Made by a program: the position numbers and the translations under genes. A stretch of 64,000 nt of DNA from Candidatus Bathyarchaeia archaeon (GTDB lineage: Archaea; Thermoproteota; Bathyarchaeia; Bathyarchaeales; Bathycorpusculaceae): positions 32,001-96,000 of the forward strand of contig JBEKWR010000004.1 in NCBI GenBank assembly GCA_049512935.1. The letters run 5' to 3'. Positions 30,554-64,000 of the stretch are shown one piece after another. Below the pieces are notes generated by a model. The model did no database searches. It was given only the letters and a program-made list of their open reading frames with translations, and had not been told where the DNA came from. How positions within the stretch are numbered: the stretch's first letter is position 1; every line of letters begins with the position of its first letter.

Positions 30554-30799
30554 GTTTCAGTTGCACCTGTTCTAATCAACTATCAAATGATGGACTTTGA
30601 ATATAAATTCTGTTGATTCCTTTATCCCTGATACTTCCTCGCGCGCTAATTGTTAACAAGCTATGAAAAAGCTAGTGATCAGAATTTTTCGAAGGAGAAT
30701 GAGCACATCTGGGCAGAGCTGGTCTTACCAGATGACAGACGAATAGCAAAATGATAGAAATCTACGTGGGTTTTAAAAATTAACCAGAGTTATAGTAGA

Positions 30800-31843: not shown

Positions 31844-32043
31844 CAGTCCTCTCTTTTAACATCTCAATTGGTTCGCGGTGCTTTGGGAAGGCTTAAACAA
31901 CGGCATAGCTTGTGATTTTTGGCATAATTATCAAGCGAAATACCAACATAATTCTTAATTAGATTACAAAATCAAGAGATAATTGAACATACAGGAAAAA
32001 CCAAACTGCAAGAAATAATGCTTGAAGATATTTCATTTAGTAA

Positions 32044-32493: not shown

Positions 32494-32612
32494 CTAGTTC
32501 TTTATTTCTCCTTTATGCTATTTATTTGGTGCCGCGCGCAAGCTAAGCCACTAAAGAATATTTAGAGTGAACCAACCACAATTCATTTTCTCACATTGCC
32601 TAATACTTTCAC

Positions 32613-33437: not shown

Positions 33438-33616
33438 TTTTCCTCCACCCTCTTATCAATTAGATGATTTTGTCCGTCGCAATTTACTTACAAGCGATTT
33501 TTCTACTATATACACCTATTCAGTACTTAAGATTTTTTCAAGAAAACTATCTAAAACTTCAGATTACCCTAAAATTAATAAGCAAAAACTCTACAGAATC
33601 AACTGAGCGGGTACAA

Positions 33617-34381: not shown

Positions 34382-34407
34382 TCACTTGGGAGAGCAGAAA
34401 TACTAAC

Positions 34408-35379: not shown

Positions 35380-35462
35380 TAATTACTTTACCAGAATTCC
35401 TCTTGGTAAGAATTCGACATTCATCTTGATCGTACCAGCTTCCTTTCTAGGAAATATCGCCC

Positions 35463-48164: not shown

Positions 48165-48257
48165 CCAGCGGTTTACATTCTAAACTCGTTTCTTTACACA
48201 ATTTTTCGGAACCTTTGCTTTTCTGCATTTGGAACGTGACTTTTGCCTAGAAATCTG

Positions 48258-48271
48258 GAAAGGTTTAAAAA
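48258..48271 (+). promoter_or_regulatory. BRE/TATA-like promoter of the cdh operon
   Basis: gaaaggtttaaaaa about 50 nt upstream of the TTG start. Confidence 0.5.
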
Positions 48272-48317
48272 CAAAGTATGTCAGTCTTTAGTTAAACCTT
48301 TACAGAGGTTCCATAAT

Positions 48318-50669
48318 TTGACAACTAAAAACGTTAACGTAAAAATAGACGAAATGAAGACCAACGTTGGTCTAATTAAAAACCTCGAAGTCTCCATCGG
48401 CAAAGTTGTCAACGACAACTACACTGAAGAGCCAATGGGACCGACCCCTATGCCATCTATAACTGCCCTTCGGGATTGGGACATGAAGCTTCTCAACAAA
48501 TACAAACCCTTCTACATGCCCGACTGTGATCTTTGTTGTCTCTGCACTTTTGGAAAATGCGACTTGACCGCTGGAAAACGCGGCGCATGCGGCTTAGACA
48601 TAGCCTCCCAATCATCCCGTATTGTGATGATCGCCTGTGCCATTGGAGCGGCATGCCACACAGCCCACTCACGACATCTTGTTCACCACTTAATTGAGAA
48701 ATACGGTCGCCGGTACCCGTTGGACGTAGGCGGCTTAAACGTAAAAGTTGAAGCGCCCGTCACACGCCTCGTTACAGGCATAAAGCCTCAAACGCTCGGC
48801 GACCTTGACGATGTTTTAACCTATACCGAAGAGCAAATCACTCAAATCCTTGCCGTAGCGCATACAGGTCAAGAAAGCAACAACTTAGATTTTGAATCCA
48901 AAGCCATGCATGTTGGCATGGTTGACCACGTAGGCATGGAAGTCGGCGACATCGCGCAAATTTCAGTTCTCGGGTATCCGAAAGCTGATCCTGAAGCTCC
49001 ACTCGTAAAGCTGGGCATCGGAAGTGTCGACCGAACCAAACCAGTCATTATGTGCATTGGCCACAACGTTGTGCCCTCAGTAGGAATAATCGACTACGCA
49101 AAAGACACCAAAGTCGACGATCAAATCGAAGTTGTCGGCTTATGCTGCACTGCCCACGACATGACAAGATACTATAACCGCGCCAGAATCGTCGGGCCAA
49201 TCAGCTGGGAGCTAAGATTCATCCGTGCAGGATTAGCGGACGTAGTGGTGCTTGACGAGCAATGTATTCGAACAGACATCTATGACGAAGCAACAAAAGT
49301 AAACGCGCCAGTCATCGCTGCTTCAGAAAAGAACTGTGTGGGATTCAAGAACCGCACAAACGACCCAGCAGACGAAATCGTCGCTGACCTCGTAAGCGGT
49401 AAAGTCAAAGGAGTCCTGATTCTTGACCCAGAAAAAGTCGGCGAAGTAGCAGTCCGCGTCGCACAGAAAGTAGCTCCAACACGCAAGAGAAAGAGCGTTC
49501 TTCCATCAATCGAAGAAATCCAACAAATCGCAAAAACCTGCACCCAATGCAAGAGTTGCCAACGCAACTGCCCACAAGACTACGCAATTCCAGCAGCCAT
49601 GAAGGCAGCAGCAAAAGGCGACCTAAGCCTTCTGGAAGACCTATACGAACAATGTATCGGCTGCGGAAGATGTGAAGAAGCTTGCCCGCAGAAAATCATG
49701 ATACACAGCCTCATCGTCAAAGCAGGCGAAAAAGCAATGTACGCAGAAAACAACCTGTGCCGCGTAGGCAGAGGTGCAGTCTCAGACGTCGAAATCCGCA
49801 ACGTGGGCAGCCCAATCGTCCTCGGAGAAATCCCCGGCATCGTTGCAGTTGTAGGCTGCAGTAACTATCCTAAAGGCGGAAAAGACGTATACGACATATG
49901 CAGAGAATTCGCGCTTAGACGCTACATCGTTGTCCTGTCAGGATGCTCAGCCATGTCCGCAGGCAGTTACCGCAACAGCGACGGACAAACACTCTACGAA
50001 GAATTCCCAGGCGGATTCGAAGCAGGAGGCGTCATGAACGTCGGCTCATGCGTTGCAAACAGCCACATCGCAGGCGCAGCAATCAAAGTAGCAAACATCT
50101 TCGCAAAACGCCCACTAAAAGGAAACTACGAAGAAATCGCAGATTACATCCACAACCGCCTCGGCGCAGTCGGCTTAGCTTGGGGTGCATACTCACAGAA
50201 AGCAGCAGCCATCGGCGCAGGATTCTGGCGCCTCGGAATACCAGTCCTCGTCGGTCCACACGGTGTAAAATACCGACGTATGCTCCTTGGCAGAAAAGAC
50301 CATCCAGAAGACTTTGAAGTCTACGATGCACGTACAGGCGACAAAGTTAGAGTCGGACCCGCACCAGAACACCTCTTCAACTCGGTAGAAACCAAAGAGG
50401 AATGTATGGTTGCAATCGCCAAACTCTGCATAAGACCAAACGACACCTGGAAAGGACGAAGCATAAAACTAAGTCACTATGTGGACTTAAGCAAACGCTA
50501 CATGGGAGTTATGCCCACAGACTTGCACTTGTTCGTTAGAACAATGGCTGATGTCCCAATGACGATGAAAGACGAATTCACCAAGATACTGGAAGCGCAC
50601 GACTGGAAAGAAACAGTAATTCCAGACCCAACATTGCTTCCAAGAATGATCAGAAAAATGAAGGAGTGA
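48318..50669 (+). CDS. cdhA: CODH/ACS alpha subunit (CO dehydrogenase)
   Basis: EPMGPTP, CDLCCLCTFGKCDL, GLCCTAHD, two ferredoxin motifs, GSCVANSH, PDPT. Confidence 0.96.
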   Translation: MTTKNVNVKIDEMKTNVGLIKNLEVSIGKVVNDNYTEEPMGPTPMPSITALRDWDMKLLNKYKPFYMPDCDLCCLCTFGKCDLTAGKRGACGLDIASQSSRIVMIACAIGAACHTAHSRHLVHHLIEKYGRRYPLDVGGLNVKVEAPVTRLVTGIKPQTLGDLDDVLTYTEEQITQILAVAHTGQESNNLDFESKAMHVGMVDHVGMEVGDIAQISVLGYPKADPEAPLVKLGIGSVDRTKPVIMCIGHNVVPSVGIIDYAKDTKVDDQIEVVGLCCTAHDMTRYYNRARIVGPISWELRFIRAGLADVVVLDEQCIRTDIYDEATKVNAPVIAASEKNCVGFKNRTNDPADEIVADLVSGKVKGVLILDPEKVGEVAVRVAQKVAPTRKRKSVLPSIEEIQQIAKTCTQCKSCQRNCPQDYAIPAAMKAAAKGDLSLLEDLYEQCIGCGRCEEACPQKIMIHSLIVKAGEKAMYAENNLCRVGRGAVSDVEIRNVGSPIVLGEIPGIVAVVGCSNYPKGGKDVYDICREFALRRYIVVLSGCSAMSAGSYRNSDGQTLYEEFPGGFEAGGVMNVGSCVANSHIAGAAIKVANIFAKRPLKGNYEEIADYIHNRLGAVGLAWGAYSQKAAAIGAGFWRLGIPVLVGPHGVKYRRMLLGRKDHPEDFEVYDARTGDKVRVGPAPEHLFNSVETKEECMVAIAKLCIRPNDTWKGRSIKLSHYVDLSKRYMGVMPTDLHLFVRTMADVPMTMKDEFTKILEAHDWKETVIPDPTLLPRMIRKMKE

Positions 50670-50676
50670 AAATGAA

Positions 50677-51219
50677 ATGTCATGTGAACCCTGGCAATGT
50701 GCAGAAATAGCCTCAACTAAAAAAGCAAACCCAATAACTAAACCCGAGATAGCAGTAGCGATGATCAAAAAAGCCCAACGCCCCATACTTATTGTGGGCA
50801 GCAACGCCACTGAAAGATACATGGAAGGCAAACAACTAATCGAATATGTAATCGACCTCGCAAAAGCATCAAAAGTACCAGTCGTAGCCACAGCCCACAT
50901 GGTTGGCGAATTCATAAAACGCGGATATCAACCAGCGGCATTTATGAATGCGATGGAGATTGGCAACCTGGTGGTTGATCCAACCTGGCAGGGCTTAGAC
51001 GGCAAAGGACACCCAGACCTGGTTCTAGTGATCGGGCTGCCTTACTATGTTGAATCATTATTGCTCTGCGGACTCAAACACTTTGCACCTGACCTAAAAA
51101 CCATGACACTGGACAACTTGTTCCATGTGCATGCAAGCTGGTCTTTCCCAAACGCAACCCCAGAAGAGTGGGCTGCAAACCTCAAAGTCATAACTTCAAA
51201 ATTTGAAGGAGGACAATAA
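50677..51219 (+). CDS. cdhB: CODH/ACS epsilon subunit
   Basis: AMIKKAQRPILIVG, WQGLDGKGHPDL, SWSFPN. Confidence 0.93.
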   Translation: MSCEPWQCAEIASTKKANPITKPEIAVAMIKKAQRPILIVGSNATERYMEGKQLIEYVIDLAKASKVPVVATAHMVGEFIKRGYQPAAFMNAMEIGNLVVDPTWQGLDGKGHPDLVLVIGLPYYVESLLLCGLKHFAPDLKTMTLDNLFHVHASWSFPNATPEEWAANLKVITSKFEGGQ

Positions 51220-51223
51220 AAAA

Positions 51224-52639
51224 ATGTCAATGTTTAAAGATATACCCGTTGATGTAGGCGTAATCTACGAAGGAGAACGCATCAGAAGAAACGACATGCA
51301 AATAGAACTCGGTGGACCAACAGTCAAACAGAAATTTGAACTCGCAAAAGTAAAACCCATGGATCAAATCGACGACGGAAAAATCACCATAATCGGCCCC
51401 GACATCAAAGACATGAAGGAAGGCGGCGCGTACCCGCTAGGCATCCTTGTTGAAGCTGCAGGCTCAAAACTCGACCAAGGCTTAGAAGGAGTCATTGAAA
51501 GACGCATCCACGGCTACCTAAACTACATTGAAGGATTCATGCACCTGAACCAGCGTTACGACATCTGGATACGCCTCGGCAAAAAATCGTTCCAGAAAGG
51601 CTTAAACAGCTTTGAACCAATCGGCAAAGTATTGTACCGCCTCTTCAAAAGTGAACTGCCAATCATCGAGAAAGTACAAATCACCTTCATAACTGACACG
51701 GCGAAACTTGACGAAATGTACCCAGAAGCAATCCAAGCTTACGAGTCTCGCGATGCCAAGGCAAGAGGTCTCAAAGACGAAGACGTCGACACATTCTACG
51801 GCTGCGCACTCTGCCAATCATTCGCGCCAAGCCACGTCTGCGTCATCACCCCGCAAAGGTACAGCAACTGCGGCGCCATCAGCTGGTTCGACGGCAAAGC
51901 CTCAGCAAGCATCGACCCCAAAGGTCCAGTCTTCGCTATACCCAGAGGACAAATGATAAACGCGGAAAAAGGCGAATTCAGCGGCGTCAACGAAGCAGCA
52001 AAGAAACGCAGCATGGGCGAAGTCCAGCAAGTCTGGCTTTACACGGCTTTTGACCACCCGCACACTTCCTGCGGATGCTTCGAGGCAGTAACCTTCTACA
52101 TCCCTGAAGTCGACGGATTAGCAGTAGTTCACAGAAGCTTCAAAGGACCAACAGTAAACGGCTTACCCTTCAGCACCATCGCGGACTCAGCGGCAGGCGG
52201 AAGACAAATCGACGGCTTCCACGGAATGTCCATAGAATACATGAGAAGCAAGAAATTCTTCGCAGCAGACGGCGGATGGAACCGAATCGTTTGGGTACCT
52301 AAAGAAGTCAAGGAACGCGTTAAAGACTTCATTCCGCCAGAACTCGTTGACAAGGTAGCAACTGAAGAAGACGCAAAAACCGTTGACGAACTCAAAGCCT
52401 TCCTAAAAGCCAAGAACCACCCAGTAGTCGCAAGATGGGCAGCCGAAGAGGCACCAGCAGCACCCGAAGCGCAAGCAGTACAAGTCACCGAAGAAGCAGC
52501 AGGCACAATGATGCCAGTTGCAACAGCAGGCACACTACCCATAATGGCAGGCGGGTTCAGAATCATCCTCAAAGACGCGAAAATCTACGCTAACAAAGTA
52601 ATAATCCAAATAGTCAAAGACGACAAAGACAAGCGGTGA
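51224..52639 (+). CDS. cdhC: Acetyl-CoA synthase beta subunit
   Basis: YEGERIR, FYGCALCQSFAP, HTSCGCFE. Confidence 0.96.
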   Translation: MSMFKDIPVDVGVIYEGERIRRNDMQIELGGPTVKQKFELAKVKPMDQIDDGKITIIGPDIKDMKEGGAYPLGILVEAAGSKLDQGLEGVIERRIHGYLNYIEGFMHLNQRYDIWIRLGKKSFQKGLNSFEPIGKVLYRLFKSELPIIEKVQITFITDTAKLDEMYPEAIQAYESRDAKARGLKDEDVDTFYGCALCQSFAPSHVCVITPQRYSNCGAISWFDGKASASIDPKGPVFAIPRGQMINAEKGEFSGVNEAAKKRSMGEVQQVWLYTAFDHPHTSCGCFEAVTFYIPEVDGLAVVHRSFKGPTVNGLPFSTIADSAAGGRQIDGFHGMSIEYMRSKKFFAADGGWNRIVWVPKEVKERVKDFIPPELVDKVATEEDAKTVDELKAFLKAKNHPVVARWAAEEAPAAPEAQAVQVTEEAAGTMMPVATAGTLPIMAGGFRIILKDAKIYANKVIIQIVKDDKDKR

Positions 52640-53889
52640 CCAAGTTGCCTCAAGACGGCGACAAGAAAAAAGACAGCGAAGAACTAATACTCAGCAAAGA
52701 GTTGCTGGACGCGCTTGCGAAGTTCAAGCAAATCGAGATTGAAGACTTCGAGATCGACGTCAAAGAGCTAGAGCTAATCTTTGAGCCTGGAATGGCTGGG
52801 CAAGTGATGCCCAAGCTAAAGCTTCCAGCCCCAGTTGCGGCAGGCGGAAAACCCACAGCCATGCTTCAGACGGCTTTCATACCGCCAATCGAAACCTACC
52901 CGAACACGATAACAGAAGTCAAACTCGGCGCAACCCGAAGCGAAGGCGGAACACGCGGAAAATCATTCACCATAGGCGGCGAAACGTCACCCCCATTCTA
53001 CAATTTTGAGCGACCCACCACTCACAAACCAGTAGTCACTTTGGACGTTTTCGACATGGAAGTGCCATTGAGCAAAGCCGTGAAGATGCACGTTAAAGAC
53101 GTCGTCGGCGACCCAGCGGCATGGGCAAAACTTGCGGTAGACCAATTCAAAGCAGACATGGTTACAATCCATTTAATCAGCATCGACCCATTGCTCAAGG
53201 ATGCAACACCGAAAGACGCGGTCAAAACGGTTGAAAAAGTTCTGCAAGCCGTGGATGTTCCCTTAGTCATCGGCGGCTGCGGGGACGCAGTAAAAGACGC
53301 TGACGTTTTCCAGGCGATCTGCGAGGCTTTCCCAGGCGAACGCTTCCTCATCAGTTCAATCACGCGGGACATGGATGTTGAACGCTGCGCAAAGTTCGTT
53401 AAGAAAAACGGGCATGCTGCGCTCTCGTTCACACCGATGGACCTGAACCTGGCAAGGGAGCTTAACAGGCGGCTCTACGATTTCCTCGGCAGAGAAGACA
53501 TTGTCATGGACTTGACCACCGCGGCGCTTGGCTACGGCTTAGACTACGCATTCACAAACATGGAACGCGCAAGACTCGGCGGATTAATGGGCGACATGGA
53601 GCTGGCTCACCCGATGTCTTCGGGAACAACAAACGCTTGGGCTGCCCGTGAAGCCTGGCTGAAAATGTCTGCTGATTGGGAACCGCGCGAACTCCGAGGT
53701 CCACTGTGGGAAGTAACAACAGCCTTAACTCTTCTGCTTGCTGGCGTCGACCTGTTCATGATGATGCATCCAGCAGCCGTCAAAACACTCAAAGACGTAA
53801 CCAACTACCTGACAAGCGGCAAAAAAGCAGACCCAGCTAAATTCGCAGATTGGGTAACCATGAAAGCTCAAGGGGTTGGAAAGCAATGA
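52636..53889 (+). CDS. cdhD: Corrinoid Fe-S protein small (delta) subunit
   Basis: LGATRSEGGTR, TAALGYGLDY, NAWAAREAW, MMMHP. Confidence 0.95.
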   Translation: MTKLPQDGDKKKDSEELILSKELLDALAKFKQIEIEDFEIDVKELELIFEPGMAGQVMPKLKLPAPVAAGGKPTAMLQTAFIPPIETYPNTITEVKLGATRSEGGTRGKSFTIGGETSPPFYNFERPTTHKPVVTLDVFDMEVPLSKAVKMHVKDVVGDPAAWAKLAVDQFKADMVTIHLISIDPLLKDATPKDAVKTVEKVLQAVDVPLVIGGCGDAVKDADVFQAICEAFPGERFLISSITRDMDVERCAKFVKKNGHAALSFTPMDLNLARELNRRLYDFLGREDIVMDLTTAALGYGLDYAFTNMERARLGGLMGDMELAHPMSSGTTNAWAAREAWLKMSADWEPRELRGPLWEVTTALTLLLAGVDLFMMMHPAAVKTLKDVTNYLTSGKKADPAKFADWVTMKAQGVGKQ

Positions 53890-55307
53890 GCGAGAAAAAA
53901 AGAGCCAGCTTAAAAGAATTAAGCCCCATTGACATTTACAAGCTTCTTCCGAAAACTAACTGCAAGGAATGCGGTCAAGACAACTGCATGGCGTTCGCGA
54001 CAAAAATCGTTAACCGCGAAGTAGAAATCGACAGCTGCAAACCACTGTTCAAGCCCGAAAACGCGAAAGCCTACGCCAAACTCAAAGACCTGCTTAAGCC
54101 CGCCGTTAAGGAAGTCATCGTCGGCGTCGGCGACAAATCAAAGAAGCTCGGCGGCAAACTTGTCATGTACCGCCACGAGTTCACTTACAAGAACCCGACA
54201 GCTATCGCGATTGACGTGACCGACGAAATGCCAATGCAGGAAGTCGTCTCGCGTGTACAGTACACGGAGAACTTTAGCTTCGAATACATTGGTAACACGC
54301 TTAGGCTGGACATGATCGCGGTCAGATGCACTTCAGGAGACGCAGACAAATTCAAGGCAGTAGTCCAGAAAGTCGCGGAAACAACCAAACTTCCAATGAT
54401 ACTTTGCACCCTGAACCCCGTGATCGCTGAAGCAGGCTTAATGGCGGCGCCAAAGGCGAAACCGCTACTGTACGCGGCAACTCAAACCAACTGGAAAGAC
54501 ATGGCTGAACTTGCCCTAATGTACGAGTGCCCGCTAGTTGCTTCTGCACCAAACGACTTGAACACGCTGGTTTCCCTTGCAAAGACACTTATGGCTTACG
54601 GAGTAACCGACTTGGTTTTGGACCCAGGCACCTTCCCAAACGAAGGGTTACCTGACACAATCAACAACTTCACGATGCTGCGAAGGGCAGCATGCAAAGG
54701 CGGCGAAGAACTAGCAGGTTTCCCACTTATGGGCGTCCCGATGGTCGCTTGGAACGATAGCGCCTCGGCTGAAGACCTGCTGAAATGGCGTGAAGCATAC
54801 TTAGCAGCAATGCTCATAGTTCGATACTCAGATGTGCTCGTGATGCACAGCGTAAGCGGCTGGTCACTTTTGCCAGATACAGTGCTGCGCCAGAACATCT
54901 ACACTGACCCACGCAAACCCGTCGCGGTCGCCCCAGGACTCAAAGTGTTCGGGACACCAGACGAGAACTCGCCAGTAATGTTCACCACAAACTTTGCCCT
55001 AACCTACTACACCGTCGCCTCAGACCTCGAAAGCAGCAAAATCAACGCCTACCTAATCGTCGTTGAAACAGAGGGCTCAGCCATCGACAGCGGAGTCGCA
55101 GGACGAAAACTAACCGCGGAACGAGTAGCCGACGCAATCAAAGCCTCAGGCATCGAAAGCAAAGTCAAACACCGAAAACTCATAATCCCAGGCAAAGCAT
55201 CACGAATCAGCGGCGAAATCGAAGAACTCAGCGGCTGGAAAGTACTGGTCGGACCAAGAGACAGCAGCGAAATACCCAAATATCTCATAGAGAAATGGCA
55301 ACCATAA
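53886..55307 (+). CDS. cdhE: Corrinoid Fe-S protein large (gamma) subunit
   Basis: LPKTNCKECG..NCMAFA, IYTDPRKP, TTNFALTYY, VGPRDSS. Confidence 0.95.
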   Translation: MSEKKRASLKELSPIDIYKLLPKTNCKECGQDNCMAFATKIVNREVEIDSCKPLFKPENAKAYAKLKDLLKPAVKEVIVGVGDKSKKLGGKLVMYRHEFTYKNPTAIAIDVTDEMPMQEVVSRVQYTENFSFEYIGNTLRLDMIAVRCTSGDADKFKAVVQKVAETTKLPMILCTLNPVIAEAGLMAAPKAKPLLYAATQTNWKDMAELALMYECPLVASAPNDLNTLVSLAKTLMAYGVTDLVLDPGTFPNEGLPDTINNFTMLRRAACKGGEELAGFPLMGVPMVAWNDSASAEDLLKWREAYLAAMLIVRYSDVLVMHSVSGWSLLPDTVLRQNIYTDPRKPVAVAPGLKVFGTPDENSPVMFTTNFALTYYTVASDLESSKINAYLIVVETEGSAIDSGVAGRKLTAERVADAIKASGIESKVKHRKLIIPGKASRISGEIEELSGWKVLVGPRDSSEIPKYLIEKWQP

Positions 55308-55446
55308 GCCATCCACTCTTCTCACTTTATTTGTTACAACTTTATTTTGCGGACTCTTTCTTAATCAAGATATCAAAATGCTTTTCATAAGAGATTTAAG
55401 TGCATGTTGAGTGTAACTCCAATAGCACAGGTATCTGGTGGTTTGA

Positions 55447-55674
55447 ATGGAAGAGTTGCTTGATAGGATAACTGTCGATCCTGATGTTCTCGTTGGAAAG
55501 CCCGTTATTAGAGGAACCCGCATTCCTGTTTACCTCATCGTAGAGTTTGTAGCTAACGGGATGACAAATAAAGAAATACTAAAAGAATACCCGCGGCTAA
55601 GAGAAGAGGACATCAAGGCAGCGCTAATTTATGCTTCTAAACTTGTAGAAAGCGAAGTCACTGTCACTATCTAA
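55447..55674 (+). CDS. DUF433 family putative antitoxin
   Basis: ITVDPDVLVGKPVIRGTRIPV, YPRLREEDIKAAL. Confidence 0.9.
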   Translation: MEELLDRITVDPDVLVGKPVIRGTRIPVYLIVEFVANGMTNKEILKEYPRLREEDIKAALIYASKLVESEVTVTI

Positions 55675-55691
55675 AAAGAAGAACTGAGTAA

Positions 55692-56051
55692 TTGACGCAA
55701 ACAATTATAGTTGACGAAAATATCCCCCAAAGCGTCGCTAAATATCTTAACACGAAGGGCATAAAGACTTTTAGCATTTCCGACGATTTCCTGAAAAGCG
55801 CAAAAGACTCAGTCATAGCTTCGTACGCATCAGAAAAAGGAATGCAGATATTGACGCTAGATTCTGACTTTGCTCAGTTGTATCACAACGTCTTCAGGGG
55901 CAGGATTACCGTTTTACTTGTGAAAGCAAATCCAACAACCGCCGAAAACATAATCGATATTCTTGATGCAGCGCTAAATAAAATAAGAAAAACTGAAACC
56001 CCAAACAAGCTTGTCATAATCACAAAAAAGAGAATTAGAATAGTTTCTTAA
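55692..56051 (+). CDS. DUF5615 PIN-like putative toxin
   Basis: IIVDENIP, AKDSVI, ILTLDSDF. Confidence 0.85.
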   Translation: MTQTIIVDENIPQSVAKYLNTKGIKTFSISDDFLKSAKDSVIASYASEKGMQILTLDSDFAQLYHNVFRGRITVLLVKANPTTAENIIDILDAALNKIRKTETPNKLVIITKKRIRIVS

Positions 56052-56063
56052 CATCTGTCTCTC

Positions 56064-56096
56064 AGAGAATGGCAGCCATAAGCAATCCGCTCTCTT
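56064..56096 (+). repeat. Degenerate duplicate of the cdhE 3' end (55289-55320)
   Basis: agagaatggcagccataagcaatccgctctctt vs agagaaatggcaaccataagccatccactctt. Confidence 0.8.
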
Positions 56097-56542
56097 ATTT
56101 TTGGTTTTTCACTTAATGTTTTTAGAGAAAAAATCTGTTGCTTACAGGGTGTAAGTACATGCGGGACGTAAGTTCTCAAGATAAAGCCTCAGGCATGAAC
56201 AGTAAAATTCGCATTTCAAGCATGGTAGACCACGGGGTAGATGTTGCGTACGTCTGGGATTCTTCAGGGGTGCTGTTTGTCTGTCTATTTGGCTCTTCTA
56301 GATGCTTCTATTTGGATCATCTAGAAAACCGTAGGGGTAGCTGGGACAAGAAAAGAAAAATGACCCTATAGGGGTCCCTACTATTTGTGGCATAATTCAA
56401 CCACAAAAAGCGCTTCTCAAATTCATCTTTGCTTTAAACCTTAAAGTGTTAAAAAAGCCATTGTTTTGACTTAAATATGTACTAAAAGCTGATAAACCCC
56501 TTCATGCACTACTCCCCCATTCAAGGGTAGAAGGGACGAAAG

Positions 56543-58024
56543 ATAGGCTGCGGTATCTTCGGAGCAAAAAACTTTGAAAACCAAACGGTCTTTCCATACG
56601 TTTATTGGGGTCTCCGCGCCCAAAACCATCGAGGACACCAATCACACGGCTTCCTCACGTACGACAACAAGCAGTTTCATGTTTACAAAAGCTTGGATCT
56701 GGTTCCCCGCCTGAAAAACGAGGCTATCCACGAATGGTTCGACCGCCTGCCCGGTTCCGTAGGCATCGGCAACGTGCGTTACACCACGTCGGGCAAATGC
56801 GATGACGCCTCAATCATCGAGGGCACGCAGCCAGTAGCCGCTTCCGCAGGCGGGATAAAGATTGCGTTGTCGTTTAACGGCAACATCGTTAACACTCTGC
56901 CCCTGAAAAAGGAAATGAGCGAAAACTTCTCAGACTTCTACTTCAACTGCGACTCAGACGTGGTCTGCCACAAGCTGCTCCTCGGGCTGAAACAGGGCAA
57001 AGACCTGGCGTCTGCGGTGCGCTCTGTCATGGAAAGCCTCGACGGCGCGTTCTCCGTGACGGGCTTAACGGGCGACGGCGACTTTTTCGCCTTCAAAGAC
57101 CCGCGTGGAATAAAACCCCTCTGCGCAGGGCACGACCCCCAAGGGGCAACCTACGCTTTTTGCTCTGAAACCGTCGGGTTAGACATGAACAGTTTCGTCA
57201 GGGACTTTGAATTGAATCCTGGCGAGCTGGTCACGGCTTCAAAAGACGGCTTCAAACGCACACAAATCATCCAAAATCCCCATCCAGCCTTCTGCGCTTT
57301 CGAGTACGCCTACTTCGCGAGGCCCGACTCAAGGTTTGACGGCAAGTACGTTTATGAAATCCGCGAGGACTTCGGAAGAAACATCGTTAAAGAGTATCCA
57401 GACGTGGTGAAGGACGCTGACATCATCATGTCGGTGCCTGAGACAGGCGATGACCCAGCCATGGGCGTCCATGAGGCGTCAGGTTTACGGTGGGAACGCG
57501 CTTCAAGAAGGCACCGCTACGTAACCGAACGCGCCTTCATCCTTCTTAACACCGAGCGTTTCTCGACCATTGACAAGAAAATCAACATCTTAGGCTCCAA
57601 AGTAGACGGCAAACGCGTCATAATAACTGAGGACAGCATAGTCCGAGGCGACACCACAAAAGTAATCATAGACAAGCTCCGCAGGGCAGGAGCCAAAAAA
57701 GTCTACGTCTTCGTCACGTTCCCAAGAATCATCGGTCCATGCTTCTACGGCATCGACATGTCAACTTACGGGCAACTCGTCGGCTCAAAACACGACGCAG
57801 ACGGAATCGCCAAAATCATCGGCGCAGACGGGGTATGCTACCAGTCAATTGGAGAGCTGGTGAAAGCGACAGGTCAAACCGAAAATGAACTCTGCATGGC
57901 CTGCATCACAGGCAAGTACCCGACGCCCTGCGCTCAAAAGATGGCTGACGCCATGAAAAAGAGGTTCCTTGAAGGCTACGAGGAAAAATCAAGAATCTAC
58001 GAGACTGAGGACGTTCAGCCGTAA
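56543..58024 (+). CDS. purF: Amidophosphoribosyltransferase
   Basis: CGIFG at 56549, QNHRG, NVRYTTSG, CAFEYAYFARPDS, EDSIVRGDT, CFYGIDM; start inferred at ATA 56543. Confidence 0.93.
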   Translation: MGCGIFGAKNFENQTVFPYVYWGLRAQNHRGHQSHGFLTYDNKQFHVYKSLDLVPRLKNEAIHEWFDRLPGSVGIGNVRYTTSGKCDDASIIEGTQPVAASAGGIKIALSFNGNIVNTLPLKKEMSENFSDFYFNCDSDVVCHKLLLGLKQGKDLASAVRSVMESLDGAFSVTGLTGDGDFFAFKDPRGIKPLCAGHDPQGATYAFCSETVGLDMNSFVRDFELNPGELVTASKDGFKRTQIIQNPHPAFCAFEYAYFARPDSRFDGKYVYEIREDFGRNIVKEYPDVVKDADIIMSVPETGDDPAMGVHEASGLRWERASRRHRYVTERAFILLNTERFSTIDKKINILGSKVDGKRVIITEDSIVRGDTTKVIIDKLRRAGAKKVYVFVTFPRIIGPCFYGIDMSTYGQLVGSKHDADGIAKIIGADGVCYQSIGELVKATGQTENELCMACITGKYPTPCAQKMADAMKKRFLEGYEEKSRIYETEDVQP

Positions 58025-58084
58025 GAACGGCAGCAAAAACATTAAGCCTGCCCTTAACCTCTCGCAGTAACCTGGTGATGTCTT

Positions 58085-59500
58085 ATGGAGAAAATAGGTG
58101 TACTCGTCGTTTCCTACGGCGCAAGAGAAGTCGCGATGGCTGACGCGCTTCTGCAGAGCAAACGCTACCAAGTGGAACTCTACGTCGCCGACAAGCAGCG
58201 CAACCCCTTCAACGCGGAAAAAGCCGCAAAACATGCTGTCATACCAAGCCTTGACGTGGGAGAAATCTGCAAGTTCGCCGAAGCCTACAAGGAAAAAATC
58301 GACTTCGCCTTGGTCGGGTCAGAAAAACCCATAATCGAAGGCGTCCGAGACCAAGTTGAGAAACGCACAGGCATCCCCGTCATCTGCCCCAAGCAACAAT
58401 ATGCCATCGAAGTCAGCAAAGTTGAGCAACGCCAGCTTTTCGACGAGATTGCGCCAGAAGCGAACCCGCGCTTCAAAGTTTTCAACCCAGCCGACTACGC
58501 GAACAAATTAGACGTTAAACCTGCCGTTTACAGCTGGCTAGACGAACTTGACAATCAAGCCGTCGTGAAGCCTGATAAGCCAGCCCTTGGAAAAGGCGTA
58601 GGCGTTTGGGGCGACCACTTCGCCAACCGAGAAGAACTTTTTGAGCATTTCATGTCCAACTTCCAGTACGGCAGCGTCATAATCGAAGAAAAAATCGACG
58701 GAGAAGAATCCAGCTTTATGGCTTTCTGCGACGGCAAACACTTCGTGCCGCTGCCTGACACGCGGGACTACAAACGCGCCTTCGACGACGATCGAGGCCC
58801 AAACACGGGCGGCATGGGCTCATACAAAGACGCAGACGACAAGCTGCCCTTCTTAACGGCGGCTGAACGAGAGGCGGAGCTGGCTTTGGCGAACAAGATT
58901 TTCAACGGGTGGAGCGCCAAAATCAAAGATTACTCCGCGCTTAGGGGCGTGCCCCTGTATCTTGCCTTCATGCACACGGGGCACGGAATCAAAGTTCTCG
59001 AGAACAACAGTCGCCCAGGCGACCCAGAAATAATCAACCTTCTCGCGTTGATCCAGGACGATTTTGTCGACGTCTGCCTCAAAATGATTGAAGGAAACCT
59101 GACAAGCATCAAACTGGAAAAGGCTGCGTCTGTCTTGACCTACAAGGTGCCACTTGACTACGGCGGCTACGCAGAAGTCTTCCCGAAAAAAGCGGACAAG
59201 ACGGCGGTTAACACTCCAGTTGACCTCTCAAAAGCCTATGCGCTGACAAAGAAGTACGGCAGCCGCATCCGCATTTACCCTGGCTCAATGGAAACAAGAG
59301 ACGGCAAAAACTACGCGCTCAAATCGCGTGCGGTGGGCGTTTTAGGCATCGGCGAAAGCATCGAAGAGGCACGCAGCATAAGCCTGGAAGGAACCAAAGC
59401 CATCAGTGGCGGCGCCTTGTGGAGTCGAACAGACGTTGCCTCAAGACAGCATATCGCGAAGAGCGTAAGTCACATGGAAAACCTGAGGCGCAGCGTGTGA
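58085..59500 (+). CDS. purD: Phosphoribosylamine-glycine ligase
   Basis: GAREVAM, VVKPD...GKGV, DYKRAFDDDRGPNTGGMGS, ENNSRPGDPE. Confidence 0.93.
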   Translation: MEKIGVLVVSYGAREVAMADALLQSKRYQVELYVADKQRNPFNAEKAAKHAVIPSLDVGEICKFAEAYKEKIDFALVGSEKPIIEGVRDQVEKRTGIPVICPKQQYAIEVSKVEQRQLFDEIAPEANPRFKVFNPADYANKLDVKPAVYSWLDELDNQAVVKPDKPALGKGVGVWGDHFANREELFEHFMSNFQYGSVIIEEKIDGEESSFMAFCDGKHFVPLPDTRDYKRAFDDDRGPNTGGMGSYKDADDKLPFLTAAEREAELALANKIFNGWSAKIKDYSALRGVPLYLAFMHTGHGIKVLENNSRPGDPEIINLLALIQDDFVDVCLKMIEGNLTSIKLEKAASVLTYKVPLDYGGYAEVFPKKADKTAVNTPVDLSKAYALTKKYGSRIRIYPGSMETRDGKNYALKSRAVGVLGIGESIEEARSISLEGTKAISGGALWSRTDVASRQHIAKSVSHMENLRRSV

Positions 59501-60576
59501 AGCGCATCTTTATATCCGACTGTGAGGGACCGATCAGCAAGAACGACAACGCCTTCGAGTTAGCTTCAAACTTCATTCCCAACGGTGACAAACTTTTCGT
59601 AAACGTAAGCAGGTACGACGATGTTTTGGCGGATGTTCTGCACAAGCCCGGTTACTCTGCAGGCGCCACGTTGAAGCTCATCTTGCCCTTCTTTAAGGCG
59701 TACGGCGTCACCGACAGGCAGATGGAAGAGTACTCAGCCAACAACATAGTCCTAATCACTGACAGCCAAACAACCCTTAGGCACGTGCAATCCATTGCCG
59801 ACGCCTTCATCGTCAGCACAAGCTACGAACACTACATCAAAGCCCTCTGCAAAACCGTGAGCTTTCCTTTCAAGAACACGTACTGCACCAAAGTAAGCCT
59901 CGACAAGACCGCCATCTCCCCGCAGGAAAAAGAGCGCTTAAGAACCATAGCCCAAGAAATCGCGCTGATGCACAAAGTTGACATTCCGAAGGCGGCAAAG
60001 GCGCTTGAAGATTTTTCCGAAAGCGACCAAGCGGTCATTCAACGTTTAGACGAGATATTCTGGAGCGAAATTCCAAAGATGTTTGTCGGAAAATTCCTCG
60101 TTGACGTGGTGACGGTCGGTGGAGAACAGAAGGCTGAGGCAATCCGCGATGCGGTTCGACGTTCAGGCGCGGATTTGGCGGGTGTCATGTATGTGGGGGA
60201 CAGCATCACCGACGCGGAAGCCTTCAAACTCGTGCGTGCTAACGGCGGATTAACGGTTTCTTTTAACGGCAACGGATACGCGGTTAGGACCGCTGAAGTC
60301 GCCATATTATCGGAGAGCAGTCTCGTCACCGCCGTGGTTGCGGACTTGTTCTGCAGGTTCGGGAAAGAAAAAGCGGTAAGCACGGTTCAAGAGTGGGGTT
60401 TTGAAACGCTCAAAAACAGCGGTGTTGACTCTTCACTGCTTAAACAGCTTTCACAACTTTGCCCTGACGTGTTGCCTAAAGTTGAAATAGTGACGCCTCA
60501 AAATATGGAGGCGTTGGCAAAGGAAAGCAGCGAGTTCAGAGGGAAAGTGCGGGGAGTTGTGGGGAGGCTCGGGTAA
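59497..60576 (+). CDS. HAD-superfamily hydrolase, EhaR/COG4030-like
   Basis: FISDCEGPISKNDNAFEL, IVSTSY, YVGDSITD, SFNGNGYA; GTGA overlap with purD stop. Confidence 0.8.
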   Translation: MKRIFISDCEGPISKNDNAFELASNFIPNGDKLFVNVSRYDDVLADVLHKPGYSAGATLKLILPFFKAYGVTDRQMEEYSANNIVLITDSQTTLRHVQSIADAFIVSTSYEHYIKALCKTVSFPFKNTYCTKVSLDKTAISPQEKERLRTIAQEIALMHKVDIPKAAKALEDFSESDQAVIQRLDEIFWSEIPKMFVGKFLVDVVTVGGEQKAEAIRDAVRRSGADLAGVMYVGDSITDAEAFKLVRANGGLTVSFNGNGYAVRTAEVAILSESSLVTAVVADLFCRFGKEKAVSTVQEWGFETLKNSGVDSSLLKQLSQLCPDVLPKVEIVTPQNMEALAKESSEFRGKVRGVVGRLG

Positions 60577-60577
60577 A

Positions 60578-61486
60578 ATGGTGAAGGCGGAAATCGAGGA
60601 CACGTACGCTGAAGCTTTCACTGGACTCTTTTGCCGCGTAATCGTGACCGCCGACGACGAGGAAACCCTTCGTAAGGCTGCTGCGGATTCTACGGCAACC
60701 CCATCGGTCGTTATCGGCAGGACAGAAGGCGGAATCGAAAAGTACCTTACCCAAAAAGAAACCCCTGACCAGCGCTTAGGCGCGTTGCTTCAGTTCTGGG
60801 GCGAAATTAACCCGAAGAAAACCTTTGAGCAGTCGCTCAAGAAGTTTGAATCTGAGCTTTCCTACCGCATCCGCCAAGACATTCTTGTTAAGCCTTTCAC
60901 CGCCGTCTACGACGCCCTGCCAGACGCTGAGGGCAAACTGGACATGATGGAGACTGTTGGACACTGCGGCGACGGGTACGAGTGGATTGAAAAACGCCGT
61001 GGCAGAGAGGTCATAGTTGTCCCCTTGATGGTTCCCGACTTCGTTATTGAACGGTGTTTAGGCTACGCGCGTGGCGTTATGGGAGGCAACTTTTGGGTTA
61101 TGTGCAAAACCAAGCAAGCCATGAAACAGGCGGGAAAGAAGGCTTTAGCCGCAGTCCACACGGTGCTCGGAGTCGTGACACCTTTTGACGTTTGCTCCGC
61201 AGGCTCTAAACCCGAAACCCATTTTCCAAAGATCGGTCCAACCACCAATCACCTGTACTGCCCGTCGCTTAAGGCGCGGTTAGGCACGGAATCCCATGTT
61301 CCCGACGGCGTAGGTTACATAGCTGAAATAGTCATTGACGGGGTTTCTTTGGAAGCGGTCAAAAAAGCAACTAAAGCGGGAATCCAAGCGGTACGGGACA
61401 TTGACGGGGTCGTGAGGGTTTCCGCTGGCAATTACGGTGGCAAACTGGGCGACTACAAAATAAGTTTGCGGGAGTTGTTTCCATGA
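60578..61486 (+). CDS. Formylmethanofuran:H4MPT formyltransferase-like protein (Ftr paralog, EhaS-like)
   Basis: IEDTYAEAF, EGGIE, ETPD, GDGYE, GVMGGNF, SAGSK, PTTNH.YCP, EIVIDG, SAGNYGGKLG. Confidence 0.85.
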   Translation: MVKAEIEDTYAEAFTGLFCRVIVTADDEETLRKAAADSTATPSVVIGRTEGGIEKYLTQKETPDQRLGALLQFWGEINPKKTFEQSLKKFESELSYRIRQDILVKPFTAVYDALPDAEGKLDMMETVGHCGDGYEWIEKRRGREVIVVPLMVPDFVIERCLGYARGVMGGNFWVMCKTKQAMKQAGKKALAAVHTVLGVVTPFDVCSAGSKPETHFPKIGPTTNHLYCPSLKARLGTESHVPDGVGYIAEIVIDGVSLEAVKKATKAGIQAVRDIDGVVRVSAGNYGGKLGDYKISLRELFP

Positions 61487-62400
61487 CAAAGTTTGATGTT
61501 GTCGGCTTTGGCGCGCTTAACGTTGACATGCTCCTCAAAGTCGATAGGCTTGCAGGCGCGGAGGAAGAAAGTTTTATTGCGGATTACGCTGAGGCTTGCG
61601 GCGGCTCAGCTGCGAACACCATGGTTGGGCTGGCGAGGCTCGGGTGTAAAGTCGGGTTCATAGGAAAAGTGGCGAACGACCGTGAAGGCAAACTGCAAAT
61701 TGACTGTTTTAACAGTGAAGGCGTTGACACGGGCGGCATCATTCAGGCAAAGCATGGGAAAAGCGGTTCAGTTTTGGGCTTCGTGGACAAGAAAGGCGCA
61801 AGAGCCCTGTACATTAACCCAGGCGTTAATGACACAATTGAGCCTCGGGAAATAAATTACGGTTACACCTTGGAAACGAAATTTCTGCATTACTCATCTT
61901 TTGTTGGAGAAAAATCTCTTCGTGCGCAAAAAAAGCTCTTAGGTGCCCTGCACAGCGATGTTAAAATCAGCTTTGACCCAGGTTCAGTTTATGCACAGAA
62001 AGGTTTTGCCGCAATAGAACCGATAATTCGCAGTTCTTATGTTTTGATGCCTAACGCTGGTGAACTTGAACTTTTAACTGGAGAAGCTGATGTCCCCAGA
62101 GGCGCCGATTTGATGCTTGATGCAGGCGTCAAAATCGTCGCAGTTAAGCTCGGCGACAGGGGCTGCTACGTCACTGACGGGCAGGAACGGCTGAAAATCG
62201 AGCCTTTCAAAGTTAAAGTCGTCGACACAACCGGGGCAGGGGACGCTTTCTGCGCGGGATTCCTCTACGGCTTAATCAACGACAAAAGTCTCCAAGAATG
62301 CGGGCGACTGGGAAATTTCGTCGCTTCAAGATGCGTCATGCAGATGGGTGCGCGTGCAGGTTTGCCTTACGCTAAAGATTTAGTGGCATTTCTTGGTTAG
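61483..62400 (+). CDS. PfkB family carbohydrate/nucleoside kinase (EhaT-like)
   Basis: GGSAANT, SFDPG, KLGDRG, DTTGAGDAF; ATGA overlap with ftr-like gene. Confidence 0.9.
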   Translation: MTKFDVVGFGALNVDMLLKVDRLAGAEEESFIADYAEACGGSAANTMVGLARLGCKVGFIGKVANDREGKLQIDCFNSEGVDTGGIIQAKHGKSGSVLGFVDKKGARALYINPGVNDTIEPREINYGYTLETKFLHYSSFVGEKSLRAQKKLLGALHSDVKISFDPGSVYAQKGFAAIEPIIRSSYVLMPNAGELELLTGEADVPRGADLMLDAGVKIVAVKLGDRGCYVTDGQERLKIEPFKVKVVDTTGAGDAFCAGFLYGLINDKSLQECGRLGNFVASRCVMQMGARAGLPYAKDLVAFLG

Positions 62401-63216
62401 GTTGTCGATGATGCTTTGGAAGATTAGTTTTCCGTCGCCGTACTGCGTCATCTGCTGTTGCCTTGTCCAGTCAGGCTGCTGCCACCAGTACATCGCCCTC
62501 TCCGGGTGAGGCATAAGCCCGAAGACGTTTCCTTCCCTATTGCACAGGCCCGCGATGTCGAAGGTTGAGCCGTTCGGGTTGACTGGGTACTTGCCGTCCG
62601 CTACGTCGCCGTTTTTGTCGCAGTAGCGGAAAACCACCATGTCTTTATCAGCCAGTTCCGCAAGCAACTCCCTCTCTTTCTCTTTTGGGAAAAGCAGTCT
62701 GCCTTCCCCGTGAGCAATGGGCATCCTCAGCACTTTTCCAGCGGGGATTTTGTTTGTGAACGCGCATTTTCCACGGTTTTCATGCTTCAGGTAAACCCAC
62801 TGGCACTTGAAGCCTGCAGGTTCATTGTTGGTTAACGTGGCTTCTGGGTAAGTGCTCACGCCTTTGAAGCCTGGCAGCAAACCGTACTCAACCATTATTT
62901 GGAAGCCGTTGCATATGCCCAGAATGGGTCTGCCTTCGTCGATGAATTTTTCCATTTCCTTGCCGAGCTTGGCGCTGAGGTGCCTCGCGAAAATCACGCC
63001 TGAACGCACATAGTCGCCAAACGAGAAGCCGCCTGGAAAAACCAGAACCTGATAATCCAGCAAACTGTGAAGTTTCGCCAGTTCGTTAACCTGCAAGACG
63101 TCCGCTTGGATGCCTAGCTCCTGAAAAGCCCGCTGGGTCTCAGCGTCACAGTTGGTTCCGCCGACACGCATCACGCAAACTTTGATTTCTTCCTGCTCCA
63201 TCTTAGGAACCTCCAC
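62380..63216 (-). CDS. purQ: FGAM synthase glutaminase subunit
   Basis: GTNCD, PGGFSFGD, GICNGFQ, IAHGEG, MPHPER. Confidence 0.95.
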   Translation of the reverse strand: MEVPKMEQEEIKVCVMRVGGTNCDAETQRAFQELGIQADVLQVNELAKLHSLLDYQVLVFPGGFSFGDYVRSGVIFARHLSAKLGKEMEKFIDEGRPILGICNGFQIMVEYGLLPGFKGVSTYPEATLTNNEPAGFKCQWVYLKHENRGKCAFTNKIPAGKVLRMPIAHGEGRLLFPKEKERELLAELADKDMVVFRYCDKNGDVADGKYPVNPNGSTFDIAGLCNREGNVFGLMPHPERAMYWWQQPDWTRQQQMTQYGDGKLIFQSIIDNLTKKCH

Positions 63217-64000
63217 TCAACGTTTTCTTCCAGCTGCCCCGCAGCTCTGCAAGCGAAGCGTCGACAGCGATTTTTCCTTTTAACCCGTTAATGACTAGAC
63301 GTTGGTCTTCGGTTACCCTGCCAATTTGGGCGCAGGGCTTGCCTTTCATTAGAAGTTCAAAGTCCCGCTTATCCTGCTCTGGCACTTCCAGCAGGAAACG
63401 GCTGTTCGACTCGGAAAACAACACAAAATCATCGCGCTCCACTCCTTTAGCGGGCACTTTGCATAAATCCAGCTGCAAACCGTAGCCGCCAGCAAACGCC
63501 ATCTCCGCCGCCGCCACCGCCAACCCTCCTTCCGAGAGGTCGTGGCATGACCTGATTAAGCCCGAGTCTATGGCTTTAGTTACTGTTCTGAACGTGCGTT
63601 TGGCTTTGGCGCCTTTAACTTTTGGAACGCTTGCGCCCAAGTAGCCTTTAAGCCTGTAGTATTCTGAACCGCCAAGCTCGCTGAAGGTTTCGCCAGCGAC
63701 GTAGAGCAGGTTGCCTGGCGCTTTCAAATCCATCGAAGTGACAAATTGGATGTTTGGAATTATGCCCACAGCGGTTATCAGCAGTGTCGGCGTGACTGGT
63801 CCCATCGGAGACTCGTTGTAGAGGCTGTCTTTTCCCGAGATAAACGGCGTCTTGAACGCCACGGCAAAGTCGTAGCATGCTTGGCAGGCTCTCACCAAAG
63901 TGCCTAGACGCTCTGGCTTCTCAGGGTTGCCCCATGTGAAGTTGTCCAGCAGCGCTATTCTTCTTCCGCCCACGGAGATGTTGTTGCGTACCGCTTCGTC
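63203..64000 (-). CDS. purL: FGAM synthase synthetase subunit, C-terminal part (runs off window)
   Basis: LDNFTWGNPE, PFISGKDSLYN, HDLSEGGL, FSESNSR. Confidence 0.93.
   Translation of the reverse strand, partial: DEAVRNNISVGGRRIALLDNFTWGNPEKPERLGTLVRACQACYDFAVAFKTPFISGKDSLYNESPMGPVTPTLLITAVGIIPNIQFVTSMDLKAPGNLLYVAGETFSELGGSEYYRLKGYLGASVPKVKGAKAKRTFRTVTKAIDSGLIRSCHDLSEGGLAVAAAEMAFAGGYGLQLDLCKVPAKGVERDDFVLFSESNSRFLLEVPEQDKRDFELLMKGKPCAQIGRVTEDQRLVINGLKGKIAVDASLAELRGSWKKTLSGGS

Follow-up and report, generated by a model that had tools for sequence, protein, structure and literature searches.

The formylation of glycinamide ribonucleotide (GAR) to formylglycinamide ribonucleotide (FGAR) has been listed as missing in surveys since 2011 for Archaeoglobi, Methanobacteriales and Methanopyrus, and since 2022 for the anaerobic methanotrophic archaea (ANME) of the ANME-1 group. 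In their available text, Brown et al. (2011; PMC3261824) report that two Archaeoglobi, four Methanobacteriales and M. kandleri yielded no GAR formyltransferase, and Chadwick et al. (2022; PMC9012536) report ANME-1 without PurN and PurT. The latter paper also describes an uncharacterized clade of paralogs of the formyltransferase Ftr, Ftr2, in ANME-1/2a/2b, Archaeoglobales, M. kandleri and M. marburgensis; Ftr1 alone is characterized among the paralogs, and the text available leaves Ftr2 and the missing PurN and PurT unconnected. In Methanothermobacter, the Ftr-like EhaS and the ribokinase-like EhaT have no assigned function; according to the available part of Kaster et al. (2011; PMC3087415), they are co-transcribed with the eha hydrogenase genes and a formyltransferase or ribokinase function is unlikely. 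Here we describe a 64,000-nt stretch of a Candidatus Bathyarchaeia archaeon genome (contig JBEKWR010000004.1, positions 32,001 to 96,000; hereafter the window), in which genes for an EhaR-like HAD protein, an Ftr2 protein and a PfkB-family kinase stand together between purD and purQ/purL.

On balance we favor the reading, drawn from sequence comparisons, that this trio would perform the conversion of GAR to FGAR by way of a riboside, in an organism without PurN and PurT. The observations behind it are a conserved order of the genes, their distribution among genomes, the replacement of the formyltransferase, gene fusions, catalytic motifs and lost phosphate contacts. The initial annotation of this DNA had proposed such a module and had noted that some archaea have no recognized GAR transformylase, on which the available texts of the two surveys (PMC3261824, PMC9012536) agree. 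We found no prior link of the trio to GAR formylation, and no account of GAR formylation at the riboside level, in the literature searched (supplements and subscription papers lay outside the search).

A candidate GAR formylation module in a purine operon

The three genes lie on the forward strand: the gene for the EhaR-like HAD-IB protein, a proposed GAR 5´-phosphatase, at 59497..60576; that for Ftr2, a proposed glycinamide riboside formyltransferase, at 60578..61486; and that for an EhaT-like PfkB/ribokinase-family kinase, a proposed formylglycinamide-riboside 5´-kinase, at 61483..62400. The GTG start of the HAD gene at 59497 overlaps the purD stop codon (GTGA, 59497-59500), its TAA stop (60574-60576) is followed after 1 base by the Ftr2 ATG at 60578, Ftr2 and PfkB share an ATGA overlap (61483-61486), and the TAG stop of PfkB (62398-62400) overlaps the 3´ end of the convergent purQ. 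The open reading frames (ORFs) and all junctions are as first described, a tight purF-purD-HAD-Ftr-PfkB unit facing purQ/purL. Families in the window were assigned with Pfam and NCBIfam profiles. Ftr2 matches PF01913 (148.8 bits) and PF02741 (181.3 bits), both lobes at full length, and also NF002554, and the kinase belongs to the PfkB/ribokinase family (PF00294, 176 bits). Direct profile matches of the HAD gene are weak, and its assignment comes from a match to PDB 1y8a, conserved motifs and the name given to its homologs by the Joint Genome Institute (JGI).

The genome is a Bathyarchaeia metagenome-assembled genome (MAG) of 49 contigs that is 93% complete. Within it, PurN gave no TIGR00639 match at E ≤ 0.01, the top TIGR01142 match for PurT was 50.7 bits in a 1090-aa frame of carbamoyl-phosphate-synthase size, and PurH was not found; by profile search, the absence of purN and purT initially noted for the window thus extends to the entire genome. 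Two tandem PurP genes are present, as are two Ftr genes, of which Ftr1, on contig C9, scores higher than the Ftr2 of the window (188 versus 151 bits). The latter is therefore not the sole canonical ftr, a possibility that the initial annotation had named as fatal to its proposal. Because there are two PurP genes and a separate Ftr1, formylation of 5-aminoimidazole-4-carboxamide ribonucleotide (AICAR) is covered and a canonical Ftr is present, leaving GAR formylation without a known enzyme.

In the proposed route, EhaR would remove the 5´-phosphate of GAR and Ftr2 would formylate the free amine of glycinamide riboside, with N5-formyl-tetrahydromethanopterin (formyl-H4MPT) or formyl-methanofuran, from the methyl branch of the Wood-Ljungdahl pathway, taken as the donor. 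PfkB would then re-phosphorylate formylglycinamide riboside and so yield the FGAR on which PurL/PurQ act, and the route would cost net one ATP per formylation, as PurT does. What each of the three proteins acts on, which donor supplies the formyl group and in what sequence the steps run are our inferences.

Distribution and gene neighborhoods of the module

EhaR was profiled against PurN and PurT in 151 Bathyarchaeia genomes, in 151 genomes from the (Halobacteriota-type) phylum of an ANME-1 MAG, G154, and in 133 from the phylum of a Thermococci-related MAG, G152; Methanobacteria and Methanococci fall outside these samples, and the phylum of the Methanopyri MAG comprises 6 genomes. Among Bathyarchaeia, EhaR was present in 62/151 genomes, and canonical PurN was found in 0/62 of these versus 17 genomes without EhaR. 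PurT-like proteins were detected in 12 EhaR-negative genomes and in 1/62 EhaR-positive genomes, where the match (175 bits) is possibly PurK. Within one Bathyarchaeia family (f11), EhaR was present in two genomes, a PurT-like protein in eight and PurN in one, with no overlap. The phylum of G152 had EhaR in 7/133 genomes, and canonical PurT in 0/7 of these versus 84 EhaR-negative genomes. In the phylum of G154, the 74 EhaR-positive genomes comprised 14 with PurN, one with a PurT-like protein (adjacent to PfkB-EhaR) and 59 with neither; the 77 EhaR-negative genomes comprised 53 with PurN, 12 with PurT only and 12 with neither. Genomes with the trio therefore do not routinely encode PurN or PurT, in keeping with what the initial annotation had required.

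The neighborhood was compared in 20 Bathyarchaeia loci, hand-picked across families from the 62 EhaR-positive genomes. EhaR occurs with Ftr2 in 16/20, most of them ordered purF-purD-EhaR-Ftr2-PfkB and facing purQ-purL. Three of the 20 read purF-purD-PurN-like-EhaR-PfkB and have no clustered Ftr2, and in one EhaR is near neither Ftr2 nor a PurN-like gene. By comparison of coordinates, the distance between purD and EhaR is no more than 2.5 kb in 57/62 EhaR-positive genomes; in the remaining five, PurD was not found in three and is located elsewhere in two. The purD beside EhaR scores 206-281 bits against TIGR00877, whereas EhaR-negative genomes mostly have a canonical purD of at least 300 bits; exceptions are G031 (EhaR-positive, 397 bits, adjacent), G087 (both types) and the EhaR-negative genera g32 and g44 (low-scoring).

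When species genomes were scanned with a small EhaR alignment, 58 loci were obtained, whose genes were mapped by tblastn. Hadarchaeota-type loci have purF-purD-EhaR with PfkB alongside, one locus has EhaR-Ftr2 facing purD-purF (L011) and another Ftr2-EhaR-PfkB (L061), and in a Methanopyrus-type genome Ftr2 adjoins PfkB. In bacterial loci (Dehalococcoidia/Chloroflexota, Methylomirabilota), a PurN-like gene stands beside EhaR in 10/12, seven of these with PfkB as well. EhaR and PfkB are adjacent in 10/20 loci of the G154 phylum and in 6/6 relatives of G152. PurT-like genes occur together with EhaR-PfkB in L014, G311 and G214; the full operon of L014 reads apt-purT-purF-purD-EhaR-PfkB-purSL-purQ-purM-purC-purE-purP-purP, its PurT passes NF006766 (395 > 339), and no Ftr match was found in that genome. 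Three cluster representatives are natural fusions, one joining a PurN-like protein to EhaR (P0177) and two joining a PurT/PurK-like ATP-grasp domain to EhaR (P0200, P0232). The linkage to pur genes is thus conserved in relatives, from Bathyarchaeia, with purD near EhaR in 57/62, to Hadarchaeota-type loci and L014, as the initial annotation had required. A PurP paralog was also considered as the missing enzyme and was rejected, since it shows no complementarity and two PurP genes also occur with PurN (in Methanosarcinales) and with PurT (in the L014 operon; Pyrococcus has two PurP-like genes and uses PurT).

Two further sets of proteins were noted. Bathyarchaeia families f18, f15 and f28 have no EhaR and no canonical PurN; they have a PurN-like protein of ~270-330 aa scoring about 90-100 bits. 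In the two examined, from f18 and f15 (G024:C21:10143-10721 and G012:C119:5002-5592; L134, L135), the protein has an unaltered SGSG[ST]N loop and an insertion of 6-7 residues after the N-x-H motif. This protein is probably the GAR transformylase of the three families. The second set consists of ATP-grasp proteins of ~540-600 aa with a PurT/PurK-type motif, which are fused to EhaR in P0200 and P0232 and whose genes adjoin EhaR in L009 (2100-4851) and L010 (2114-4865), both short contigs on which no pur genes were recognized. At PurT positions 114 and 363 these proteins have Lys and Ile, respectively, and they may represent a fourth solution for the formyl donor.

Catalytic motifs, phosphate contacts and alternative readings

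An indication of the acceptor comes from enzymes that take the place of Ftr2. E. coli PurT binds GAR at its phosphoryl group through Arg362 and Lys355, at its carbonyl through Arg363, at the ribose hydroxyls through Glu82 and at the amine through Asp286, as given in the available text of PMC6968694 and PMC2978367. In the PurT-like proteins of the EhaR-positive L014, G311 and G214, position 362 is Glu (3/3) and the loop 352-364 carries an insertion of 8-10 residues (3/3), with Glu82, Asp286, Lys355 and Arg363 all kept (3/3). Arg362 is present in 11/11 PurT proteins from genomes without EhaR, four Bathyarchaeia and four members of the phylum of G152 among them. The three ATP-grasp domains fused or adjacent to EhaR have Ile at 363, in a less securely aligned region. 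The SGxG[ST]N loop at the N-terminus of PurN is changed to S[ST]G[RQ]D in 13/13 EhaR-linked PurN-like proteins, which retain the catalytic N-x-H and Asp; the loop is intact in five canonical and two sub-cut-off PurN proteins from EhaR-negative genomes.

In two unrelated families the phosphate site thus appears to have changed, with the gain of an acidic residue in each, only where a phosphatase occurs together with a riboside-type kinase. As Arg362Glu and the remodeled PurN loop were seen only in the presence of EhaR, we argue that the acceptor is without a 5´-phosphate. Moreover, EhaR and PfkB persist whether the formyltransferase is Ftr2, a folate-type PurN-like enzyme or a formate/ATP-type PurT-like enzyme, so that they must act on the acceptor shared by these enzymes. 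The changed phosphate-holding residues lend support to the phosphatase-formylation-kinase scheme of the initial annotation and, together with the conserved pur linkage, the phyletic pattern and the separate Ftr1, to its assignment of the trio to GAR formylation. Its postulated H4MPT dependence holds up as an inference for Ftr2 alone, given that EhaR and PfkB also pair with folate- and formate/ATP-type enzymes.

The other two proteins have the motifs that such a route would call for. EhaR homologs are called "energy-converting hydrogenase A subunit R" by JGI, and close homologs named by NCBI come from Bathyarchaeia. The protein matches 1y8a (AF1437 of A. fulgidus, a structure without annotation) at E 2e-33; with its predicted structure (pLDDT 96.8), Foldseek returned 1y8a first (E 9e-23) and then SerB structures (1e-7 to 1e-4), along with likeness, below 1y8a, to ThrH, MtnX and cytosolic 5´-nucleotidase III. 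No variation was seen across 69 sequences at D8, E10, G11, P12, K212, D235 and D239, and hardly any at STS 107-109; D-x-E-G-P of motif I, the Lys of motif III and GDSxTD of motif IV are likewise invariant or almost so. The Rossmannoid core and motifs I-IV of the HAD-IB phosphatases are present, with Glu rather than Asp two residues after the nucleophile. We propose from the model and motifs that EhaR is a phosphoserine-phosphatase-like HAD-IB enzyme that would act on GAR. The protein ends in a helix and tail of the form R..VRG...G.LG (window 60520-60576); the LG end is found in 88/91 ORFs (loci L009-L113), and the tail stays free in 3/3 natural fusions, EhaR being the C-terminal part. A role as a carrier protein, with the C-terminal Gly ligated by PurD, was rejected as it would consume the protein. 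A complex prediction for Ftr2 and EhaR from alignments scored 0.00 and was counted neither for nor against.

Among 43 EhaR-linked kinases, the Asp of the GAGD motif (D255) is present in 43/43, and of the NxxE motif E190 is kept in 42/43 and N187 in 36/43. E. coli ribokinase positions N14, D16, G41, G42, N46 and D255 are retained, whereas K43 is Ser in 43/43 and E143 is Phe in 37/43. Not all of the residues that we take to be the ribose contacts are therefore kept, and the window protein falls below the RbsK equivalog TIGR02152 (167.1 bits < 299.65). This residue pattern fits a ribofuranoside with an aglycone rather than free ribose.

Several points weigh against the riboside route or narrow its reach. 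The phyletic counts describe a pattern rather than serve as a statistical test, and they overstate its significance, given that related genomes are not independent. Canonical PurN co-occurs with EhaR in 14/74 genomes of the phylum of G154, so the module is not a strict alternative; by analogy with PurN and PurT in E. coli, this co-occurrence could be redundancy. EhaR is without a recognized neighboring partner in 10/20 loci from the same phylum and in most of the ANME-1-labeled loci from the EhaR scan. A subgroup of ~372 aa (P0199, P0222, P0245, P0256, P0263, P0244), with three named members from Methanoplasma, Methanomethylophilaceae and Methanomassiliicoccus, all Methanomassiliicoccales, has neither the nucleophile Asp nor the LG tail; it is probably a non-catalytic paralog, and judged by its residues some EhaR family members cannot be phosphatases. 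The three Glu362 PurT-like proteins may form one clade and hence not represent three independent events, and the PurN SGxG[ST]N loop is the GAR phosphate site by our own assumption, for which we found no confirming paper. The initial annotation likened the trio to the end of the eha operon; the families and the JGI name agree with this. The case for orthology to the EhaR of Methanothermobacter is built on JGI names and one paper rather than on an alignment, and no Methanothermobacter sequence appeared among the EhaR cluster members listed or the matches listed for the Methanopyrus homolog. Finally, a detour through dephosphorylation and rephosphorylation is not obviously necessary with formyl-folate or with formate and ATP. 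It is possible, if speculative, that the detour arose to pull an unfavorable transfer from N5-formyl-H4MPT and was later retained.

Alternatively, Ftr2 would formylate GAR as the nucleotide, from formyl-H4MPT or formyl-methanofuran, with EhaR and PfkB as accessory proteins for the control or salvage of dephosphorylated intermediates. The chemistry would be simpler, FGAR is what PurL requires, this reading accounts equally for the pur linkage and the complementarity with PurN/PurT, and the 10/20 EhaR loci without a recognized partner suit this alternative. However, EhaR and PfkB are kept with any type of formyltransferase, even a PurT-like protein that passes NF006766, three natural fusions join a formyltransferase to EhaR, and Arg362Glu and the remodeled loop are restricted to the presence of EhaR. 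We regard formylation at the nucleotide level as unlikely, though it is the most serious competitor of the riboside route.

A role of the trio in another pathway, with the pur neighbors reflecting co-regulation, is improbable. AICAR formylation, nucleoside salvage, and synthesis or repair of methanofuran or H4MPT come into question, as PfkB and HAD enzymes are typical of salvage and repair, Ftr binds methanofuran, and PurP adjoins EhaR-PfkB in 2/6 loci among relatives of G152. Yet the Bathyarchaeia genome has two PurP for AICAR, the complementarity is with PurN/PurT, and the EhaR-linked PurT-like proteins keep Glu82, Asp286 and Arg363, the contacts to ribose, amine and carbonyl. The module is also present in the Dehalococcoidia genome G155 and in G152, for which no Ftr match was found, making a methanofuran or H4MPT role unlikely there.

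Still less credible is that Ftr2 is a second formyl-methanofuran:H4MPT formyltransferase isoenzyme serving the Wood-Ljungdahl pathway encoded upstream. In its favor, Ftr2 passes NF002554 (336.1 bits > 297), cdhABCDE lie upstream, and a Glu is kept at the aligned position of the residue that we take to be the catalytic Glu of Ftr. However, it fails the fhcD/Ftr equivalog TIGR03119 (235.5 bits < 292.6), and Ftr1 is encoded elsewhere in the genome. A maximum-likelihood tree separates Ftr1 from Ftr2 with 100/100 support (23 Ftr2 rows from four lineages and only three Ftr1 rows, from this genome, a Methanopyrus-type genome and Hadarchaeota), and Ftr2 has specific indels and a His-Cys motif. At least two Ftr matches were found in 50/62 EhaR-positive versus 5/89 EhaR-negative Bathyarchaeia genomes; among the EhaR-positive genomes with fewer than two, EhaR adjoins a PurN-like gene in 5/12. 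Of the five EhaR-negative genomes, at least two appear to hold Ftr1 duplicates or fragments. In addition, a PurN-like gene can take the place of Ftr2 in the operon. A role of EhaR, EhaS and EhaT as subunits of the energy-converting hydrogenase Eha is very unlikely: they are co-transcribed with ehaA-R in Methanothermobacter (PMC3087415, available part), but EhaA (PF17367) was not found in this 93% complete genome by a search that did find it in M. jannaschii, pur operons contain the genes in Bathyarchaeia, in Hadarchaeota-type and Thermococci-related genomes and in bacteria, and all three belong to soluble enzyme families with intact catalytic motifs.

Returning to the riboside route, a broader version would have purine synthesis leave the nucleotide level at the GAR step in many archaea, some Chloroflexota and other bacteria, with Ftr2 as the original enzyme, drawing the C8 carbon straight from the methanofuran/H4MPT one-carbon (C1) pool, and PurN- and PurT-derived enzymes recruited later with loss of the phosphate site. 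It would span Bathyarchaeia, Hadarchaeota, Methanopyri, ANME-1 and Hydrothermarchaeota, seen here, and from the literature Archaeoglobi (with the homolog AF1437 in A. fulgidus) and Methanobacteriales. We hold this version tentatively, finding it nearly but not quite as probable as its opposite. If the module acts as proposed, it would fill the place of the missing archaeal GAR formyltransferase with three named candidate enzymes and would explain ehaRST at the end of the anaplerotic Eha operon, Eha replacing the formyl units that purine synthesis withdraws. Were the riboside route itself to hold, it would be, to our knowledge, the first case of de novo purine synthesis via a non-phosphorylated intermediate as well as the first biosynthetic role of an Ftr-family enzyme, and would tie the Wood-Ljungdahl or methanogenic C1 pool directly to purine C8, a link that bears on the interpretation of isotope labeling and on metabolic models of methanogens, ANME and Bathyarchaeia.

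Operon surroundings and comparison with known systems

Upstream of the trio, on the forward strand, are purF (amidophosphoribosyltransferase; 56543..58024; TIGR01134, 291 bits for the canonical-start ORF 56693-58024, which is without the N-terminus) and the divergent purD subtype, PurD* (58085..59500), whose TIGR00877 score of 242.7 bits is below the cut-off of 288 though all three GARS domains are present. On the reverse strand, convergent with the operon, are purQ, the glutaminase subunit of formylglycinamidine ribonucleotide synthase (62380..63216; NF002252, 311 bits > 298), and the C-terminal part of purL (63203..64000; family profile match), which continues beyond the window end. The initial annotation began purF at 56543, and this coordinate is kept, yet the codon there is ATA and not a canonical start. 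No ATG, GTG or TTG occurs downstream of the in-frame TAG (56528) before the codon of the catalytic Cys (56549) is reached, and the sole start candidate is ATA 56543, two codons ahead of the Cys. The same position is ATG in the closest relative (L074, a sister genome) and ATA in another (L075), which suggests that purF may use an AUA start codon. The Wood-Ljungdahl genes noted just upstream are cdhA, cdhB, cdhC, cdhD and cdhE, encoding the archaeal carbon monoxide dehydrogenase/acetyl-CoA synthase (48243..55307, forward strand). The 1.2-kb gap between cdhE and purF (55308-56542) has a lone ORF of 119 aa without a family match, and Rfam and tRNA scans of it gave no match. Farther away, window positions 28001-36000 have a GC content of 0.39-0.40 versus 0.45-0.52 across the remaining window, and may be an island or foreign DNA.

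The window trio belongs to the same three protein families as EhaR, EhaS and EhaT, the last genes of the Methanothermobacter eha operon. Here, the genes are instead part of a pur operon, between purD and purQ in a genome in which EhaA was not found, and the EhaR-like gene, lying between purD and Ftr2 rather than in an eha operon, is not assigned as Eha subunit R. With SerB, the other HAD-IB phosphatases and 1y8a, EhaR has the fold and HAD motifs I-IV in common; it differs from the phosphatases by the DxEGP motif I in place of DxDxT and by a larger cap, and additionally has a conserved C-terminal helix ending RG...G.LG. Ftr2 matches the solved structures of Ftr (PDB 1ftr, 1m5h, 1m5s) at E 1e-46 to 7e-53 and, in common with Ftr, has both Pfam domains at full length and the aligned, presumably catalytic Glu. 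Relative to Ftr1, it carries extra sequence behind QFWG and is two residues shorter at a deletion, RIGQC is replaced by RIRQ, and [FY]FGDG is replaced by HCGDG, the conserved His-Cys motif.

PurN (EC 2.1.2.2) carries out the step proposed for the module, conversion of the GAR amine to a formamide, but works without a phosphatase or kinase partner. Ftr2 has an unrelated fold and its donor is presumably a methanopterin or methanofuran. The divergent PurN-like protein that replaces Ftr2 at the purD/EhaR junction in 3/20 Bathyarchaeia loci, and stands beside EhaR in 10/12 bacterial loci, scores 53-65 bits against a cut-off of 150 and has a remodeled N-terminal loop. PurT catalyzes the same step at the same net ATP cost. 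The EhaR-linked PurT-like forms that accompany EhaR-PfkB in L014, G311 and G214 score 344-403 bits, compared with 525-649 for canonical PurT in the phylum of L014, and differ from it by Glu in place of the phosphoryl-binding Arg362 and by the insertion in loop 352-364.

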